Source of the DNA: Armatimonadota bacterium
GTDB taxonomy: Bacteria; Armatimonadota; Fimbriimonadia; Fimbriimonadales; GBS-DC
Length of the DNA stretch: 64,000 nt
Reading direction: 5' to 3'
Assembly (NCBI GenBank): GCA_037444405.1
Contig: JBBIML010000006.1
Coordinates: 209,135 to 273,134, forward strand
Shown here piece by piece: positions 42,113 through 58,308 of the stretch. A program made the position numbers and the translations under genes. Under the pieces are notes generated by a model that was given only the letters and a program-made list of their open reading frames with translations, was not told where the DNA came from and made no database searches. Positions within the stretch are counted from its first letter, which is position 1. Each line of letters begins with the position of its first letter.

Positions 42113-43576
42113 ATGCCATACATCACCGAATCGGGCAAAAAGCTGATCACGGTCATTCCGGGCGACGGCGTTGGACCCGAATGCATCGGCGCCGCGCTGC
42201 GAATCTTAGAAGCGGTCGGCGCACCCATCGAGTGGGAAGTGCGCGAGGCAGGCGCCAGCGTGTTCAAAAAGGGTCTCGAAAGCGGCGTGCCGCCCGAAAC
42301 CATCGAATCGATCCGCAAAACGCGCGTGGTACTCAAAGGTCCGCTGGAGACCCCTGTCGGCTATGGCGAAAAGAGCGCGAATGTTACCCTGCGCAAGCTG
42401 TTCGAAACCTACGCGAATGTGCGCCCCGTGCGCGAGATGCCCAATGTGCCCACACCCTACAGCGGACGCGGCATCGACCTGGTGGTGGTGCGCGAAAATG
42501 TGGAAGACCTCTACGCGGGGATCGAGTATATGCAGACGCCGGGCGTGGCGCAGGCGCTCAAGCTCATCTCCCGCAAAGGCTGCGAAAAAATTGTGCGATT
42601 TGCCTTCGAGCTGGCACGCGCCGAAGGACGCACAAAAGTTCACTGCGCCACCAAGTCGAACATCATGAAGTTCAGCGAGGGCATGCTCAAGCGCGTGTTT
42701 GAAGAGATTGCGCCCGAATATCCCGATATTGAGGCGAACCATATTATTGTGGACAACTGCGCCCACCAGCTGGTCAAGCGCCCGGAGCAGTTCGAAGTGA
42801 TAGTGACCACCAACATGAACGGCGATATTTTGAGCGATTTGACCTCCGCACTGATTGGCGGGCTGGGCTTCGCGCCATCAGCCAACATAGGCAACGAGGT
42901 CGCCATCTTCGAAGCGGTTCACGGCTCCGCGCCCAAATACGCGGGCAAGAATGTGATTAACCCGACGGCGGTCATCCTGTCGGCGGTGATGATGCTGCGC
43001 TATTTGGGCGAGTTCGAAGCGGCGGCGACCATCGAGAACGCCCTGCTCTACACCCTTGAAGAGGGCAAGGTGCGCACGGGCGATGTGGTCGGCTACGACC
43101 GCTGCAACACCACCACCGAGTACACCGATGCGATTATCGCCAATCTGGGCAAGAAGCCATCCACGACCTTCGTGCGCGAATACCGCCCCATCCGGCTGCC
43201 GCAGGTGTCGCCCGACCCTGCGAGCGTTCGCCCGAATCAGCGGCGCGTGGTGGGCGTGGATGTGTTCGTAGAGACCGAGCTGATGCCCGAACCGCTGGGG
43301 CAACTGCTGGAGACGCTCGCCGCCGAATCGCCTTTCTACCTCAAAATGGTCTCCAATCGCGGCACGAAGGTGTACCCGCCCACGGGCGCCATCACCGATG
43401 TGGTGGATCACTATCGGTGCCGATTCCTGTTGCGCGACCCGGCAGGCGATGCCACCGACGCGCAGATTCTCGAGCTGGTTCAGCGCATCGGCAGCCGCCT
43501 GCGCTGGATGCACATCGAGAAGCTCAATGAGTTCGATGGCGCACAGGGCTTCACCAAAGCGCAGGGCGAGGACTGA
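42113..43576 (+). CDS. icd: NADP-dependent isocitrate dehydrogenase (Thermus-type with C-terminal extension)
   Basis: SANVTLRK, RENVEDLY, TKSNIMK, NMNGDILSD, EAVHGSAPK, C-term FTKAQGED. Confidence 0.95.
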   Translation: MPYITESGKKLITVIPGDGVGPECIGAALRILEAVGAPIEWEVREAGASVFKKGLESGVPPETIESIRKTRVVLKGPLETPVGYGEKSANVTLRKLFETYANVRPVREMPNVPTPYSGRGIDLVVVRENVEDLYAGIEYMQTPGVAQALKLISRKGCEKIVRFAFELARAEGRTKVHCATKSNIMKFSEGMLKRVFEEIAPEYPDIEANHIIVDNCAHQLVKRPEQFEVIVTTNMNGDILSDLTSALIGGLGFAPSANIGNEVAIFEAVHGSAPKYAGKNVINPTAVILSAVMMLRYLGEFEAAATIENALLYTLEEGKVRTGDVVGYDRCNTTTEYTDAIIANLGKKPSTTFVREYRPIRLPQVSPDPASVRPNQRRVVGVDVFVETELMPEPLGQLLETLAAESPFYLKMVSNRGTKVYPPTGAITDVVDHYRCRFLLRDPAGDATDAQILELVQRIGSRLRWMHIEKLNEFDGAQGFTKAQGED

Positions 43577-44187
43577 TCAACCTCGCCCGATTCGGGCGTG
43601 AAAAGGCGTTGCTGGATCAGGGCGGCGACGGGTTCGAAGGTGCGCCGATGGATGGGCGAGGGACCGAGCCGCTGGAGCTGGCGCAGGTGGAACGGCGTCG
43701 CGTAGCCCTTGTGCTGGGCGAAGCCGTAGCCCGGATAGAGGCGATCATATTCACACATGAGCCTGTCGCGCACCACCTTGGCAAGGATGGAGGCGGCGGC
43801 AATGCGCTCATCGAGGGCATCGCCATCGATGAGCGTGCGCTGTGGCAGGACGCAACCCTCAATCGCGTGGCGACCGTCGATGAGCAGTTCATCGGGCACG
43901 ATGGGGAGGCTTTCAACGGCGCGGCGCATCGCCAGCAGACTCGCACGCAGAATGTTCATCTGCTCGATCTCGCGCGGGGTGGCGATGCCGACCGCCCACG
44001 CCAGCGCGACCGTGCGGATCGCCTCGAAGAGCTGCTCGCGCACAGGCGCGGTCAACTGCTTGCTATCACGAATGGTGCTGAGGGGGTGGTTTGGCGGCAG
44101 GATCACGCAGGCGGCGACCACGGGACCCGCCAACGGACCGCGCCCCGCTTCGTCCACGCCCGCCACCCATCGCCGCGCCACCTGCAT
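43480..44187 (-). CDS. rnhB: Ribonuclease HII (start may be 44235)
   Basis: GVDEAGRGPLAGPVVAA, DSKQL, IAAASILAKV.RD, HKGYAT, HRRTF. Confidence 0.95.
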   Translation of the reverse strand: MQVARRWVAGVDEAGRGPLAGPVVAACVILPPNHPLSTIRDSKQLTAPVREQLFEAIRTVALAWAVGIATPREIEQMNILRASLLAMRRAVESLPIVPDELLIDGRHAIEGCVLPQRTLIDGDALDERIAAASILAKVVRDRLMCEYDRLYPGYGFAQHKGYATPFHLRQLQRLGPSPIHRRTFEPVAALIQQRLFTPESGEVDQSSPCALVKPCAPSNSLSFSMCIQRRRLPMR

Positions 44188-44226
44188 CGCCCGATGCGAT
44201 TCGCCGTCTGTCGCGTGGCTCCTGCT

Positions 44227-44281
44227 GGGGCGCATAGCGGTGCGCCCCTCACCCCTACCCTCTCCCCAGAGGGGAGAGGGG
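44227..44281. repeat. REP cluster upstream of rnhB
   Basis: GGGGCGCATAGCGGTGCGCCCC palindrome overlapping CCCCTCACCCCTACCCTCTCCCCAGAGGGGAGAGGGG. Confidence 0.7.
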
Positions 44282-44306
44282 CTTAGCGGCTCCCTCTGGC
44301 ACTCGC

Positions 44307-44342
44307 AAAAAGAAAATGCCGGGGCTCCGCCCCGGCATTTTC
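44307..44342 (-). terminator. Intrinsic terminator
   Basis: GAAAATGCCGGGG-CGGAG-CCCCGGCATTTTC-TTTTT on - strand (13-bp perfect stem). Confidence 0.75.
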
Positions 44343-44427
44343 GCGCTACGATTGCCCGTAGATTCACCTCGCGCTGAGGTTGTCGAGAGTGGCAACCTCC
44401 TTGCGAGGGCAGGCTTTGCTCCCCTAC
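44307..44427 (-). ncRNA. Candidate sigma-54-dependent small RNA (~120 nt) ending in an intrinsic terminator
   Basis: Three consecutive hairpins between a -24/-12 motif and a U-tract; no plausible ORF. Confidence 0.55.
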
Positions 44428-44437
44428 CTTTCCTTGC

Positions 44438-44453
44438 AGCAACTTTTGTGCCA
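44438..44453 (-). promoter_or_regulatory. Sigma-54 (-24/-12) promoter
   Basis: TGGCAC-AAAAG-TTGCT, exact consensus spacing, intergenic. Confidence 0.65.
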
Positions 44454-44487
44454 CACGCGCCCTTTCGCTGTCGGGTATGCTCAAAAC

Positions 44488-45498
44488 ATGGGGCAAACGG
44501 TGCTGATCACAGGCGGCGCAGGCTTCATCGGCAGCCATCTGACCCTCTATCTGCTGCGCCACTATCCCGACTATCGGGTGCGCGTGCTGGATGCGCTCAC
44601 CTACGCGGGCAACCGCGAGAATTTGAAGGAAGCGGAGGGCGACCCACGCTTCGAGTTCATCCATGCCGATGTGCGCGACCGTCAGGCGGTGCAGACCGCG
44701 ATGCAGGGCGTGCAACTCGTGGCGCACCTGGCTGCCGAAACGCATGTCGACCGCTCCATCCTGAACCCCGACGCCTTCATCACCACCGATGTGTATGGCA
44801 CCTTCGTGGTGCTGGAGGCGGCGCGGCAGGCGGGCGTTGAGCGGTTTCTGCATGTCAGCACCGACGAGGTGTATGGTCCCGCTGGGGAAGGCGCCTGCAC
44901 AGAGGATTCGCCCCTGCGTCCGAGCAGCCCCTACGCCGCCAGCAAGGCGAGCGCCGACCTGCTGGCGCAAGCCTATCACCGGACCTACGGGCTGCCCGTG
45001 CTGATTGTGCGCCCCAGCAACACCTTCGGACCGCGCCAGTACCCCGAAAAGCTGATCCCCTTCTTCGTCACGCGCGCCCTTCAGGATCAACCGCTGCCCC
45101 TCTATGGCGACGGGCAGCAGGTGCGCGACTGGCTCTATGTGGATGACCATGTGCGTGCGCTCGATCTTGTGCTGCACAGGGGTCAGGTCGGCTCCATCTA
45201 CAACATCGCGGCGAACAACGAGCGCACGAATCTCGAAATCACCCGCCGCATTCTGACCATTCTCGGCAAGCCAGAGACGCTGATCCAGTTCGTGAAGGAC
45301 CGCCCGGGGCACGATCGTCGCTACGCGCTGGACACCCGTCGCATCCGTGCGCTGGGCTGGCAGCCGCAGGCAGATTTTGAGGACGCGCTGCGCGAGACGG
45401 TGCTGTGGTATGTGCAGAATCGCGACTGGTGGCAGCGCATCCTGCAGGAGCAGGTCGAATACAGGCAGTTCGTGCAGGCGTGGTATGAGCGTCGTTAG
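44488..45498 (+). CDS. rfbB: dTDP-glucose 4,6-dehydratase
   Basis: TGGAGFIGS, LTYAGN, AAETHVDRSI, STDEVYG, YAASK, DRPGHDRRYA. Confidence 0.96.
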   Translation: MGQTVLITGGAGFIGSHLTLYLLRHYPDYRVRVLDALTYAGNRENLKEAEGDPRFEFIHADVRDRQAVQTAMQGVQLVAHLAAETHVDRSILNPDAFITTDVYGTFVVLEAARQAGVERFLHVSTDEVYGPAGEGACTEDSPLRPSSPYAASKASADLLAQAYHRTYGLPVLIVRPSNTFGPRQYPEKLIPFFVTRALQDQPLPLYGDGQQVRDWLYVDDHVRALDLVLHRGQVGSIYNIAANNERTNLEITRRILTILGKPETLIQFVKDRPGHDRRYALDTRRIRALGWQPQADFEDALRETVLWYVQNRDWWQRILQEQVEYRQFVQAWYERR

Positions 45499-54381: not shown

Positions 54382-57039
54382 GTGATGGCGCAACTGAGCT
54401 GGCTCACCGAGCTGATGCGCGCTGCCACAAGCGGGGTCGGCACCGAAGACCTGGCGAACCTGCTGCGCCAGATTGCCGAACGCACCGGCGCATGGAACGG
54501 TCTCATCCAGCGGAACCCCGACGCGCCCCCTCTCGTCCTCATGCAGGCGCCCGTGCTACCGATTGCCGAAGTGCGAAGCCAGCTAACGGAGATGTTCGCG
54601 GAAGCGACTTCCGAAGCCCCCAGCAAGGGAGAGGGTACGGATGAGGGGTCTATGCTGGGCGGGACGCCCAGGCTACGCGAGGGTATAGGCAAGGGGTTCA
54701 ACCCATCTTCCGATTCGCGCTATTGCTGGCGTGTCGAACCGCTCACTGCGCCCAATCTGTTCTATGCGCTCCGCATCCCGCACGAGCAGGCAAGCGACGG
54801 CGTCTGGGATGCCGTCGTGGAGCTGGTGCGCCTTTTGAGCCGTCAGGAGCAGCTCCATCGCGAGATCGACGCGTTGCGGCGCCAGTCGGAGCGGCGGTTG
54901 CTGACCGTCGCCACGCTGTACGAGACGGTGTTAGCCTCCTCCCAGCAGGGGCTGGAACGCTTCCTGCAGCTGGTGACGGAGCGCGCGGCGCACGCGATGG
55001 ACGCGCAAGCCTGCACGCTGATGCTGCTTCAGCCCGACGAGAACGCGCTCACGATTGCCGCCAGCTACGGACTGGCGCCCGAGATCGTGTCGCATGTGCG
55101 CATTCCGCTCGGCGAAGGCATCGCGGGATGGGTTGCGCTCACAGGCGAGACCATCCTCATCGATGATCCGAGCCAGCATCCAGAGCTGGCTGGGGTGGCG
55201 CCGCGCCCCGAAATCAGCAGTTCGATCTGCGTGCCGCTGCGCAATCGGCAGGGCGAAGTGTTTGGCGTGCTGACCATCCGCCGCCTTCAGCCCGCGCCGC
55301 GCTTCACCAGCGAGGATGTGCATGCCTTCTCCATCTTCGCCAGCCTGATTGCGCTCGCCATCGAGAACGCCCGCCTCTATGCTGACCTCCATCGGCGCGT
55401 GCAGGAGCTGACCACGCTGGTCAACCTCTCGCAGGTGGTTAGCGCGGTGCTGGACATCGAAACGCTGCTGGAGCTGGTCGGACGCCAGATCGAGCAGGTG
55501 GTCGGTTTCTCGCGCTACGCGCTGTTTTTGCAAAGCGAATCGTCGCGCACCTATCAGCCCCATCTGTTGCGCGGCTACAGCCGCGAGATGTTCCCCCCAC
55601 GCGGCTTCCGCAAGGGTCAGGGCGTGATTGGCATCGTTGCCAAGAAGAAGATGCCGCTGGTGATTCACGACGCGCGCAGCGAGCTTCAGCCCATTCGGGG
55701 ATTCGGGCGTACCATCGGCGCGAACCGCTACTGCGTGCTGCCGATTGTGGTTCACGGCAGCTGTATCGGGGTCGTGCTGGCTGATAATGAGGACCGCAGC
55801 GGGCTGTTCACGATGGAGCAGGTCGATCTGCTGAGTGTGTTCGTGGCGCAGGCGGGGATCGCCATCGAGAACGCGCGCCTCTATCGCGAGATGGAGCAGC
55901 GCTATCGCGAGATTCAGAACCTTGCTGCGTTCCGCAACAACATTCTGCGCAGTCTTGGCGCGGGCATGTTCACGCTGAACGCGGCGGGCGTTATCACCAC
56001 ATGGAACCGCGCGGCGCGAGCCATCACGGGCATTCGCGGGCGCGAGGTGGTCGGCAAGCCCTATACGGAGCTGTGCCATCGGCTGAAGGGGCGCTTGCCC
56101 GACGACTCCCTGCAGAACCTTCAGCACGCGCTTGATGCCGTGTTAAAAGGTGGCGGTGGACGCAGCCTCTATCGCATCCCGCTCGCTCCCGCACCGAACA
56201 CAACCGAGAACGCGCAGATTCTCAACTTCACCATCACGCCGCTGCTGATGCGCGGCTCCGATGAGCCTGGCGGCGCAGTGGTGGTGTTCGAAGACATCAC
56301 CGAATATCACCGATTGGCGACGCGCCTGAGCCAGATGGAGCGCCTCGCCGAAATCGGGCAGATGACCGCCACCATCGCCCACGAGCTGCGCAACCCGCTC
56401 ACTGCCCTCAAAGGCGCCGCCGACCTGCTCGCCCAGGAGGAGAACCTGCCCGAACCCGTGCATACCTATGTGGACATCATCCGTCAGGAGGTCGCCCGCC
56501 TGAACGAAATCGCCAATGAGTTCCTGGAGTTCGCCCGCCCCTTCGTGCCGAGCTGGCGACTGGTCGCCCTGCGCCCGATGCTGGAGCGACTGCTCGCCGC
56601 GCTCACCCCCTACCTCAAGGAGAAGGGCGTCACCGCGACGCTGGAGGTGGAGGGCGAACCCACTGCACGGCTTGACCCCGCCCGCATCGAACAGGTGTTG
56701 CGCAACCTCATCCAGAACGCCGTCCAGGCGATGCCCGACGGCGGACAGCTCACCCTGCGAGCGGGCGAAGCCAGTGGCAAAATCTACCTGCAGGTGCAGG
56801 ACACCGGCACGGGCATCCCGCCCGAAATCCGGGAAAAAATCTTCACGCCCTTCTACACCACCCGCACGCGCGGAACCGGACTGGGGCTGAGCATCGTCCA
56901 AAAGATTGTGCAGGCGCACCACGGCGAAGTGCGCGTCGACTGCCCTGCTGAAGGTGGCTCCATCTTCACGGTGTGGATACCGAAAATCGAAAAGTGCAGT
57001 GATTTTTTGGACACCGATTCGGGCATAGCCCATAGCTGA
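54382..57039 (+). CDS. GAF-GAF-PAS sensor histidine kinase
   Basis: Two AIENARLY GAF ends, WNRAA PAS, AHELRNPL, NLIQNA, DTGTGI, GTGLGL. Confidence 0.95.
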   Translation: MMAQLSWLTELMRAATSGVGTEDLANLLRQIAERTGAWNGLIQRNPDAPPLVLMQAPVLPIAEVRSQLTEMFAEATSEAPSKGEGTDEGSMLGGTPRLREGIGKGFNPSSDSRYCWRVEPLTAPNLFYALRIPHEQASDGVWDAVVELVRLLSRQEQLHREIDALRRQSERRLLTVATLYETVLASSQQGLERFLQLVTERAAHAMDAQACTLMLLQPDENALTIAASYGLAPEIVSHVRIPLGEGIAGWVALTGETILIDDPSQHPELAGVAPRPEISSSICVPLRNRQGEVFGVLTIRRLQPAPRFTSEDVHAFSIFASLIALAIENARLYADLHRRVQELTTLVNLSQVVSAVLDIETLLELVGRQIEQVVGFSRYALFLQSESSRTYQPHLLRGYSREMFPPRGFRKGQGVIGIVAKKKMPLVIHDARSELQPIRGFGRTIGANRYCVLPIVVHGSCIGVVLADNEDRSGLFTMEQVDLLSVFVAQAGIAIENARLYREMEQRYREIQNLAAFRNNILRSLGAGMFTLNAAGVITTWNRAARAITGIRGREVVGKPYTELCHRLKGRLPDDSLQNLQHALDAVLKGGGGRSLYRIPLAPAPNTTENAQILNFTITPLLMRGSDEPGGAVVVFEDITEYHRLATRLSQMERLAEIGQMTATIAHELRNPLTALKGAADLLAQEENLPEPVHTYVDIIRQEVARLNEIANEFLEFARPFVPSWRLVALRPMLERLLAALTPYLKEKGVTATLEVEGEPTARLDPARIEQVLRNLIQNAVQAMPDGGQLTLRAGEASGKIYLQVQDTGTGIPPEIREKIFTPFYTTRTRGTGLGLSIVQKIVQAHHGEVRVDCPAEGGSIFTVWIPKIEKCSDFLDTDSGIAHS
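54617..54711. repeat. Cluster of REP-derived elements inside the kinase CDS
   Basis: GGGAGAGGGTACGGATGAGGGG (reverse-complement REP), GCTGGGCGGGACGCCCAGGCTAC (GTAG REP on -), AGGCAAGGGGTTCAACCCATCTT. Confidence 0.65.
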
Positions 57040-57117: not shown

Positions 57118-58308
57118 ATGTCGGCAACGGTCCTGATTGTGGAGGATGAAGAGAATATCCGCCGTGTGCTGGCGATGGGTCTGAAAAAAGCGGGCTTTGA
57201 GACCCTCACCGCGCCTGGTGGGTATGCCGCGCTCAAACTGCTGGACGAGCATCTTTGCGATGTGGTGCTGACCGATGTGATGATGCCCGATATGAACGGG
57301 CTGGAGCTGCTGCGTCGCATCCGGGAGAAGTATCCCGATGTGATTGTGATTATGGTCACCGCCTTCGGCACCATCCCCGCCGCCGTGGAGGCGATGCGGC
57401 TGGGCGCCATCGATTTTTTGACCAAGCCGCTCGATATGGAGGTGCTGTGCAAGCTGATTCGCAACGCCCTGCGCGACCGCGAGCGGCTGATGGCGCCCGT
57501 CGCCCAGCGCAGGCGCGCCCCCGCCGCCCGAAAGACCACCTTCATCGGCAACAGCCCTGCCATTCAGGAGGTGTTGCAGATTGTGGAGCGCGTTGCCGAC
57601 ACGCGCACGACCGTGCTGATTACAGGTGAGAGCGGCACAGGCAAGGAGCTGATCGCTCGCATGCTGCACGAGAAGAGCAGTCGCGTTAGTGGACCCTTCG
57701 TGGCGGTCTCCTGCGCCGCCATTCCCGAAACCCTGCTGGAGGTGGAGCTGTTCGGCGCGGTCAAAGGCGCGTATACAGGCGCGGAGACCGACCGAATCGG
57801 CAAGTTCGAAGCGGCGAACGGCGGCACGCTCTTTCTGGACGAAATCGGCGACATTCCGCCTCTAATTCAGGTGAAACTGTTGCGGGTTCTGCAGGAGCGT
57901 GAGATTGAGCGGCTGGGCAGCAACAAGCCCATCCCCGTCGATGTGCGCCTCGTTGCCGCCACCAATCGCGACCTGGAGCAGGCGGTTCAATCGGGCAGCT
58001 TCCGCGCGGACCTCTTCTATCGCCTGCAGGTGGTGCATATCCACCTGCCGCCGTTGCGCGAGCGTCGTGAGGACATCCCGCTGCTGGTGGAGCATTTCAT
58101 TCAGAAGTACGCGAAGGAGAACAACCGCGCGTTGCAGGCGGTCAGCCCCGACGCGCTGGCGATCCTGCAGGCTTATTCGTGGCCGGGCAATGTGCGCGAG
58201 CTGGAGAACGCGATTGAGTCGGCGGTCGTGCTGGCGCCCCCCGACGCCACCGTGCTGCTCCCCGACCACCTCCCTGCCCAGCTCAGACGCCTATCGGCAG
58301 GAAAGTAG
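57118..58308 (+). CDS. Sigma-54-interacting response regulator (NtrC family) lacking the C-terminal HTH
   Basis: REC domain; [45 protein letters not shown]; stops shortly after the AAA+ domain. Confidence 0.93.

Follow-up and report, generated by a model that had tools for sequence, protein, structure and literature searches.

What is encoded between rnhB, the gene for RNase HII, and rfbB, the gene for dTDP-glucose 4,6-dehydratase, in a genome of the Armatimonadota? The intergenic region lies in a stretch of 64,000 nucleotides (the window) of contig JBBIML010000006.1, assembly GCA_037444405.1, positions 209,135 to 273,134. The source genome has a size of 2.68 Mb and a GC content of 62.5%; it is referred to as G000, and contigs, loci and genera are given as C-, L- and g-numbers, respectively. 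A prediction made earlier from the letters of the window alone had proposed that the region carries an independent, sigma-54-driven small RNA (sRNA) of ~120 nt or, less likely, an attenuating leader of rnhB. Our results from this study indicate that it very probably contains a real, sigma-54-dependent sRNA gene that is conserved in one bacterial family and forms a new RNA family. They also lead us to lean slightly toward the view that this sRNA functions by pairing with two other predicted RNAs, CU-1 and CU-2, as a sigma-54-induced anti-sRNA or sponge.

The sigma-54 promoter and the predicted transcript

The minus strand carries an exact sigma-54 promoter motif, as the original prediction had stated. 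The pattern TGGCAC-N5-TTGCW was found at this one site in the window, where 0.03 sites are expected, and at least one such site was found in 3 of 100 shuffles. The features of the element, all on the minus strand, are as follows.

44453-44438, minus strand: sigma-54 promoter with -24 element TGGCAC and -12 element TTGCT, in full TGGCAC-AAAAG-TTGCT (exact motif, N5 spacing)
44427, +/- 2 nt, minus strand: predicted transcription start (+1), placed by the spacing from the -12 element (C of TTGC at -12)
44427-44307, minus strand: predicted sRNA of ~121 nt, from promoter to terminator
44396-44425, minus strand: invariant purine-rich 5' domain complementary to CU-1, composed of AGGGGAGCAAAGCCUGCCCUC (44425-44405) and CAAGGAGG (44403-44396), from alignment and RNAduplex
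44367-44408, minus strand: stem-loop 2 with outer stem CCUCGC/GCGAGG (44408-44403 with 44372-67), interior GAGGUUG/CAACCUC and loop CCACUCUCGA, from folding
44361-44370, minus strand: third block, GAGGUGAAUC, complementary to the 5' end of CU-1 and found only in genus g1, from duplexes
44346-44361, minus strand: small hairpin CUACGG-GCAA-UCGUAG with a GNRA loop, genus-specific (absent outside g1), from folding
44307-44342, minus strand: intrinsic terminator with a 14-pair stem (9 GC) at 44342-44312, a 3-nt loop and U5 at 44311-44307, from folding

Folding of 131 nt of the sRNA region gave -64.3 kcal/mol, compared with -45.9 +/- 4.1 for shuffled sequences (z = -4.5), and none of 200 shuffles equaled it. 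The three hairpins proposed earlier were reproduced, and the terminator, previously described as a 13-bp stem, was found to have 14 pairs before its U5. A 5' hairpin, GGUAGG/CCUGCC, was also predicted in some folds. It failed in genus g3 when the family alignment was read, and the 5' domain is taken as mostly unpaired. Scanning the whole window with Rfam 15 gave no match at the gathering score, and a search of positions 44150-44550 at E<10 returned only sub-threshold noise, the best being 20.6 bits against a cut-off of 70. By the gathering score, the predicted sRNA is outside the known Qrr, GlmY/Z, CrcZ, 6S, SRP, tmRNA and riboswitch families, in agreement with the earlier statement that it was not recognized as SRP, 6S, tmRNA or a known riboswitch.

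The promoter and the beginning of the transcript are conserved in the family. When 44295-44460 was compared by BLAST with 40 relatives, all 24 genomes of the family but one, G004, yielded the promoter and the first ~70 nt (23/24), and the three congeneric genomes matched over the full length. None of the 16 genomes outside the family had a match, with best E values of 0.02 or worse. In all 20 family loci aligned, TGGCAC[A/G]AAAGTTGCT was invariant, while ~20 nt upstream and ~12-18 nt downstream of it varied. The promoter is followed by an invariant block, GG[A/G]GAGCAAAGCCUGCCCUC, and then by [G/A][C/U]AAGGAGG. On the 3' side of this domain, the interior of the next stem-loop varies, some loci have an additional hairpin, and the terminator hairpin has a different sequence in each genus. 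In 150-nt folds, a GC-rich hairpin and a U-rich tail of differing sequence ended 18 of the 20 loci; for the other two, of G010 and G008, reading of the sequences placed the terminator hairpin further downstream.

The main stem also covaries. In each of the 19 distinct sequences, the outer stem (columns 22-27 with 73-78) consisted of six standard pairs. Covariation was seen at two of the six, one between GC and AU (10 and 9 sequences) and the other among UA, CG and UG (13, 4 and 2 sequences). As a control, sliding the 3' partners cut the pairing from 89.5% to 28-52%. R1, a covariance model of the core, scored 43-75 bits in the source genome and in 14 of 15 family genomes; 135 genomes from three other families of the class gave no more than 27 bits. 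Moreover, an exact-pattern scan of metagenomes yielded 98 stretches, and 34 of the 80 that were listed and scored matched R1 at 52-76 bits. Among the 23 distinct sequences of these homologs, 92.8% of the cells of a 9-pair helix were paired and 3 compensatory pairs were found, in an alignment that was fitted to R1 and hence is biased toward the structure. The other 46 of these 80 did not match R1 and were set aside as unrelated promoters. They include 14 contigs (e.g., L174, L180, L199, L203, L218, L223, and L246), several of them labelled as gut metagenomes, in which the promoter and GCAAAGCCTGC occur in an identical 38-nt span; this is probably an unrelated conserved sigma-54 promoter of another organism. 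Homologs outside the family were also sought across the phylum as a sigma-54 promoter followed by the motif. Four of 397 genomes had such hits, compared with seven for the reversed pattern as a control, and these were attributed to chance. In the phylum-wide sample, promoter plus motif was found in G000 and three family genomes.

The pyrimidine-rich loop CCACUCUCGA, previously suggested as an anti-Shine-Dalgarno (anti-SD) seed, is confined to genus g1, as is the GNRA hairpin, and other genera have unrelated sequence in its place. GAGAGUG, the target proposed for this loop, fared no better, as GAGAGTG occurs 4 times in the window, where 7.9 occurrences are expected by chance. The loop was accordingly rejected as the functional seed. 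The conserved part of the putative sRNA, which appears to be under selection and is presumably functional, is its purine-rich 5' end. This end points to a partner other than the GAGAGUG target, namely another small RNA.

The genes on the two sides of the element are arranged as follows.

44488-45498, plus strand: rfbB, dTDP-glucose 4,6-dehydratase (TIGR01181, 444.4 bits against a cut-off of 365.1)
43480-44235, minus strand: rnhB, RNase HII, outside the element (profile matches)

The intergenic position given by the original prediction stands, and its description of the setting is corrected to a divergent layout: the sRNA and rnhB are on the minus strand and rfbB is on the plus strand, with 35 nt between the -24 element and the rfbB start codon. 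In 19 of the 20 loci rfbB is divergent and adjacent at a distance of ~35 nt, with G008 as the exception. In contrast, rnhB is downstream of the sRNA in the source genome only (1/20), and the rnhB leader considered earlier was rejected in favor of an independent sRNA. In the other loci the downstream genes vary, each apparently with start signals of its own. Thus, the predicted sRNA gene is an independent, trans-encoded one, with its own promoter and its own terminator kept whatever the downstream gene. No second copy of the sRNA body (44300-44430) was found in the genome. A dispersed repeat of the repetitive extragenic palindromic (REP) or miniature inverted-repeat transposable element (MITE) type, which would have undone the prediction, was therefore rejected for the sRNA body; only 44241-44283 is repeated.

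Complementarity with CU-1 and CU-2

The locus of CU-1, the best candidate partner, surfaced in the BLAST search with the sRNA and in the search with R1 (24.8 bits, identical in many genomes). CU-1 and its paralogues are listed below.

G000:C23:31928-31855 (L022/L053), outside the window, minus strand: CU-1, predicted CU-rich sRNA of ~70 nt (BLAST and R1 match)
G000:C17:26535-26462 (L085), minus strand: CU-2, paralogue sharing the hairpin and loop of CU-1
G008:C48 (L084) and G004:C15 (L087): CU-2 paralogues, sharing the hairpin and loop

The predicted promoter of CU-1 shows a conserved -10 box (TGCCATAAT or GCCGATAAT). The CU-rich 5' end of this RNA, CGAGUUCACCUUCCUUCC (also given as CGAGUUCACCUUCCUU), is invariant, and its hairpin, whose 17-nt loop, GCUUUGCUCUCCUUUC, is almost invariant, is followed by a U tract. 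Its genomic contexts are varied and unrelated. RNAalifold analysis of 14 distinct sequences gave a 9-pair terminator stem with 4 compensatory pairs. Several pairs of this stem are of the G.U type and hold only on the strand predicted to be transcribed, since the opposite strand would have A-C mismatches in their place. In a phylum-wide sample of 401 genomes, 49 carried CU-1. An exact-pattern scan of a species-genome collection returned 56 records, none labelled as another phylum. These were metagenome-assembled genomes labelled Armatimonadota, Fimbriimonadia/Fimbriimonadales or Chthonomonadales/Chthonomonadaceae/Chthonomonadia/Chthonomonas, or bore no taxon name ("uncultured bacterium", "Bacterium HR15/HR16"). 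At E<1, an Rfam search of the CU-1 locus gave only sub-threshold noise. Given its promoter, its covarying terminator and its conservation throughout the phylum, CU-1 is predicted to be an undescribed sRNA, and it looks like an anti-SD translational repressor. CU-2 has only the terminator hairpin and loop in common with CU-1, and its 5' end differs; the CU-2 gene of G008:C48 has a TTGACA-17-TATACT promoter. In G000, CU-2 is ~200 nt from a sigma-54 promoter, C17:26717, which drives a protein with a PEP-CTERM-like tail.

The 5' domain of the sRNA is the reverse complement of the CU-1 loop and of the 5' arm of the CU-1 stem. The complementarity comprises 17-21 bp plus 7-8 bp, and in genus g3 it includes 17 consecutive Watson-Crick pairs. 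Its 12-nt core, GAGCAAAGCCUG, matches CU-1 perfectly, and the AAGGAGG of the sRNA pairs with CCUUCCUU. In addition, the GAGGUGAAUC block, which is absent from other genera, pairs in genus g1 with the 5' end of CU-1. Just one substitution, A/G, is common in the 5' domain, and as it faces a U in the duplex, both forms pair.

RNAduplex gave -67.1 kcal/mol for the sRNA and CU-1, compared with -46.3 +/- 4.8 for 1000 dinucleotide shuffles, none of which was as low. Folded together, the two RNAs reached -99.9, compared with -59.6 and -26.1 when folded separately. For cognate pairs of seven genomes, the energies were -49 to -67 against ~-40 +/- 5, with 0-5 of 200 shuffles as low. The genome was also scanned for duplexes after a blastn prefilter, by which only sites sharing a 7-nt Watson-Crick word with the query were scored. 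When the query was the first 35 nt of the sRNA (2908 prefiltered sites, mean -31.3, sd 4.8), CU-1 was the best trans site at -56.2 and CU-2 was third at -50.1. In the reverse scan with CU-1 (3691 prefiltered sites, mean -36.2, sd 5.5), the best trans site was the sRNA at -62.4, so that the two RNAs are reciprocal best matches. A strong CU-1-like site, C7:221679, falls inside the coding sequence of a repeat protein.

Several observations weigh against pairing with CU-1 as the function of the sRNA. Part of the complementarity falls on the 5' arm of the CU-1 terminator stem, which must open for the duplex to form, and RNAduplex ignores such intramolecular structure. At 62.5% GC the energies have a heavy tail, the next-best sites reaching -50.4 in the sRNA scan and -57.7 in the CU-1 scan. 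Within the family CU-1 is invariant except in G008, and co-variation of the partners is thus uninformative there. In G008, reading of the sequences showed that both partners changed at one position of the duplex, which resulted in a U-C mismatch rather than compensation. Moreover, G004, a member of the same family, has CU-1 and the sigma-54 activator described below and no detectable copy of the sRNA; hence, the circuit would be dispensable. The likeness may also date from an inverted duplication of the CU-1 gene and be kept now for some other reason, and CU-1 is itself a predicted RNA.

If the sRNA were a conventional regulator of mRNAs, its 5' end would be a seed for mRNAs with GAGGGCAGGCUUUGCUC-like sites, and its match to CU-1 would result from inverted duplication or from SD/anti-SD convergence. 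Hfq-dependent sRNAs usually begin with the seed and close with a terminator. The predicted sRNA fits this layout, Hfq is encoded in the genome, other strong seed sites exist (e.g., C6:175828 at -50.4), and G004 keeps CU-1 without the sRNA. However, CU-1 and CU-2 rank first and third among the trans sites scored across the genome, no start codon of an mRNA emerged as a candidate site, the one CU-1-like site inspected being in the repeat-protein coding region, and the 12-nt core that matches CU-1 is unrelated to SD or anti-SD sequences. Targeting of mRNAs is thus considered unlikely. It is more difficult to reconcile the conserved sequence with a decoy that titrates CsrA, by two conserved GGA motifs ~22 nt apart, or Hfq. 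RNAs such as CsrB/RsmZ and CrcZ are known protein decoys, and those that sponge CsrA carry many GGA motifs. Both CsrA and Hfq are encoded here, and the conserved GGGGAGC and AAGGAGG each contain a GGA. These are the only two conserved GGA motifs, whereas RNAs of the CsrB/RsmZ type have many in hairpin loops; the second is partly buried in a stem in genus g1, and CsrA binding leaves the invariant stretch between them, GCAAAGCCUGCC, unexplained. A decoy function is accordingly rated improbable.

The conserved neighborhood raises the question of whether the element acts in cis, either as a leader or attenuator of the downstream gene or by interference of the sigma-54 complex with the divergent rfbB promoter, the RNA itself being without a role. 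Such action would suit the constant spacing of ~35 nt between the -24 element and rfbB, which is the divergent neighbor in 19 of 20 loci, and the conserved GGGTATCCT/TATGCT box near the rfbB ATG, which adjoins the sigma-54 site. Nevertheless, the downstream gene differs between genera and is preceded by a full terminator, G008 keeps the RNA without an adjacent rfbB, and promoter interference alone does not require selection on the transcribed 5' domain and stem. Action in cis is therefore judged quite improbable. A mRNA for a small protein, in which ribosomes would bind at AAGGAGG or a short peptide would be read from the 5' domain, is hardly credible. A frame reading MESKACPHKEV..., with an AUG or GUG start, does extend over the conserved domain in 9 of 20 loci, all of genus g3, and a UUG follows AAGGAGG in g1. 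In g1 and g5, however, a UAG in the same conserved nucleotides closes the frame, the lengths and C-termini differ, the peptides of g1 and g3 are unrelated, the UUG of g1 is 0 nt from the SD-like motif, and the covariation of the stem is of the RNA type. As no frame is common to the family, a small open reading frame was rejected at the family level, consistent with the earlier remark that no sensible one is present. The g3 frames are those of L009, L011, L013, L014, L016-L019, and L021; they are 16-32 amino acids long and start 3-5 nt from the predicted +1.

The sigma-54 system and a possible two-RNA circuit

For the sRNA promoter to be used, the genome must encode sigma-54 and an activator. 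The gene for sigma-54, rpoN, is present (102 bits). Genome-wide, 15 strict sigma-54 sites were found, compared with ~1.3 expected from the shuffle rate of the window scaled to 2.68 Mb. An extended consensus, TGGCAC-purine-rich-TTGCT/A, is common to 12 of these 15 sites, all 12 of which sit upstream of plausible genes or RNAs, and the sRNA promoter fits it. The sigma-54 activator that had been noticed in the window was confirmed as a bacterial enhancer-binding protein (bEBP), and the gene directly upstream encodes a sensor kinase.

57118-58308, plus strand: the sole true sigma-54 activator (bEBP), with a receiver, an AAA+ sigma-54 interaction domain and a lid and with no DNA-binding domain (domain matches)
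54382-57039, plus strand: sensor histidine kinase, GAF-GAF-PAS-HisKA-HATPase, directly upstream of the bEBP gene (domain matches)

The search for bEBPs gave this one protein at 247 bits; four others are AAA+ proteins with 20-34 bits. The protein ends at residue 396 without a helix-turn-helix (HTH), and its profile match stops at about position 390 of 461. A single orthologue was found in each of the 25 relatives searched, with open frames of ~390-420 amino acids in the family. Activators lacking a DNA-binding domain need no upstream binding site, and among known bEBPs FlgR and CtcC are of this kind. Similar to FlgR and CtcC, the bEBP of the window combines a receiver with an AAA+ sigma-54 domain and a lid and lacks an HTH. 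Its score on NF049963, the model for Campylobacter FlgR, is 343.8 bits, under the cut-off of 750 of that model, and by NCBIfam cut-offs it is therefore not an orthologue; nor is there a link to flagellar genes here. The absence of a DNA-binding domain appears to fit the position of the sRNA promoter, which is 35 nt from a divergent start codon and leaves no room for an upstream activator site. The bEBP is presumed to be the activator of the sRNA promoter and the GAF-GAF-PAS kinase its signal input, and the entire sigma-54 regulon appears to hang on this one two-component system.

Promoters nearly identical to that of the sRNA (TGGCAC-A/G-rich-TTGCT/A) are located at C8:175482, C8:113815, C11:103499, C12:33608, C17:19808, C17:26717, C27:10605, C32:26326, and C39:1156. 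The products encoded downstream include ones labelled polysaccharide-export-like, PEP-CTERM-like tail, sigma-factor-like, response regulator and DAHP-synthase-like, labels that come from reading N-termini rather than from family scans. Labelled in this way, the genes suggest a small sigma-54 regulon centered on the cell surface. A second candidate for a sigma-54-driven sRNA is located upstream of a mutS-like gene (G000:C10:46826-46960, plus strand; L150), where TGGCACGAAAGTTGCT precedes a ~100-nt RNA (fold z = -3.4) that contains a 12-bp terminator and leaves a stretch of CACCUCCCUCCCUCUCAC unpaired; this candidate is conserved within genus g1 only.

If pairing with CU-1 and CU-2 is indeed the function of the sRNA, the circuit might operate as follows. 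The GAF-GAF-PAS kinase would sense a signal and phosphorylate the single bEBP, which would in turn remodel the sigma-54 polymerase at ~12 near-identical promoters, that of the sRNA among them. The sRNA would emerge pairing domain first, contact the 17-nt loop of CU-1 and zip into the stem and the CU-rich 5' stretch, with CU-2 as a further partner; Hfq may assist the pairing. Both pyrimidine-rich motifs of CU-1, which are anti-SD look-alikes, would be blocked and CU-1 would be sequestered or destabilized. Repression by CU-1 would then be relieved at its targets, which are imagined to have a ribosome-binding site of the AAGGAAGG type. Control could also run in the opposite direction, with CU-1 silencing the sRNA.

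More broadly, we tentatively propose, with doubt slightly outweighing confidence, a two-RNA switch specific to Armatimonadota. Its first component would be a general repressor, the phylum-wide CU-1/CU-2, expressed from constitutive promoters, and its second an inverted copy of the gene of that repressor, captured behind a sigma-54 promoter in one family of Fimbriimonadia. The sigma-54 pathway for cell-surface genes would thereby lift CU-1 repression in the same step.

Such a circuit would resemble known ones in parts. Qrr1-5 of Vibrio are sigma-54-dependent, trans-acting sRNAs controlled by the response-regulator bEBP LuxO, and QrrX is a sRNA that antagonizes the Qrr sRNAs by pairing (PMC12559287). 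Common to Qrr and the predicted sRNA are a short length, a sigma-54 promoter and a response-regulator bEBP, while it is QrrX that is a pairing antagonist of sRNAs. Thus, in Vibrio the sigma-54 product regulates mRNAs and the sponge is a separate RNA, whereas in the Armatimonadota the putative sponge is the sigma-54 product itself. The two systems also differ in phylum, share no sequence or Rfam relation, and here the bEBP lacks a DNA-binding domain. CrfA of Caulobacter crescentus is described in the same paper as a stress-induced sponge that sequesters the conserved sibling sRNAs SisA-D, with pairing demonstrated by RNA interaction by ligation and sequencing (RIL-seq) and by genetics, and with its transcriptional regulation still to be determined (PMC12559287). 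Similar to CrfA so described, the sRNA of this study would be an independent, condition-induced RNA that masks the seeds of abundant, widely conserved sRNAs with paralogous members, here CU-1 and CU-2. The sequences are unrelated, however, and the pairing between the sRNA and CU-1 is a predicted one.

Two other groups of RNAs offer partial parallels. RosA of Bacillus subtilis is a sponge for RoxS and FsrA, and AgvB and AsxR are anti-sRNAs of E. coli. These RNAs are sponges for C/U-rich or seed-bearing sRNAs aimed at ribosome-binding sites, with the anti-sRNAs mimicking a target site, and they differ from the predicted sRNA in promoters, origins and phyla. In Proteobacteria, GlmY, CrcZ and NrsZ are sigma-54-dependent sRNAs that titrate proteins (RapZ, Hfq/Crc). 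They share with the predicted sRNA a sigma-54 promoter on a non-coding RNA acting by mimicry or sequestration. Their action is on proteins, however, and the Rfam models show no similarity in this region.

If the proposed circuit is true, it would be the first RNA sponge controlled by sigma-54 and the first riboregulatory circuit described in the Armatimonadota, a phylum with very few cultured representatives; a literature search, judged by titles and abstracts, found no paper on small RNAs of this phylum. It would further imply that sponge RNAs arise by inverted duplication of their partners and that sigma-54 riboregulation extends beyond Proteobacteria. Apart from the circuit, the results describe two putative new RNA families with clear boundaries, for neither of which Rfam 15 has a model, and a compact sigma-54 regulon, with about a dozen promoters that are nearly identical and a single activator that lacks a DNA-binding domain. 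The antagonism between the two sRNAs is a hypothesis concrete enough for an in-vitro test.

Other observations at the locus

Between the sRNA terminator and rnhB, positions 44241-44283 are occupied by a dispersed, REP-like inverted repeat, CCCCTCTCCCC...GGGGAGAGGG...GGGGTGAGGGG, which is present in dozens of copies on many contigs of the genome.

On the other side of the sRNA promoter, the ATG of rfbB comes 6 nt after a -10-like TATGCT, which is GGGTATCCT in relatives (window 44470-44490, plus strand; loci L003-L021), and rfbB appears to be leaderless or nearly so. Similar boxes, GGGTATACT/GGTATAAT, precede the start codons of several other genes in the related loci.

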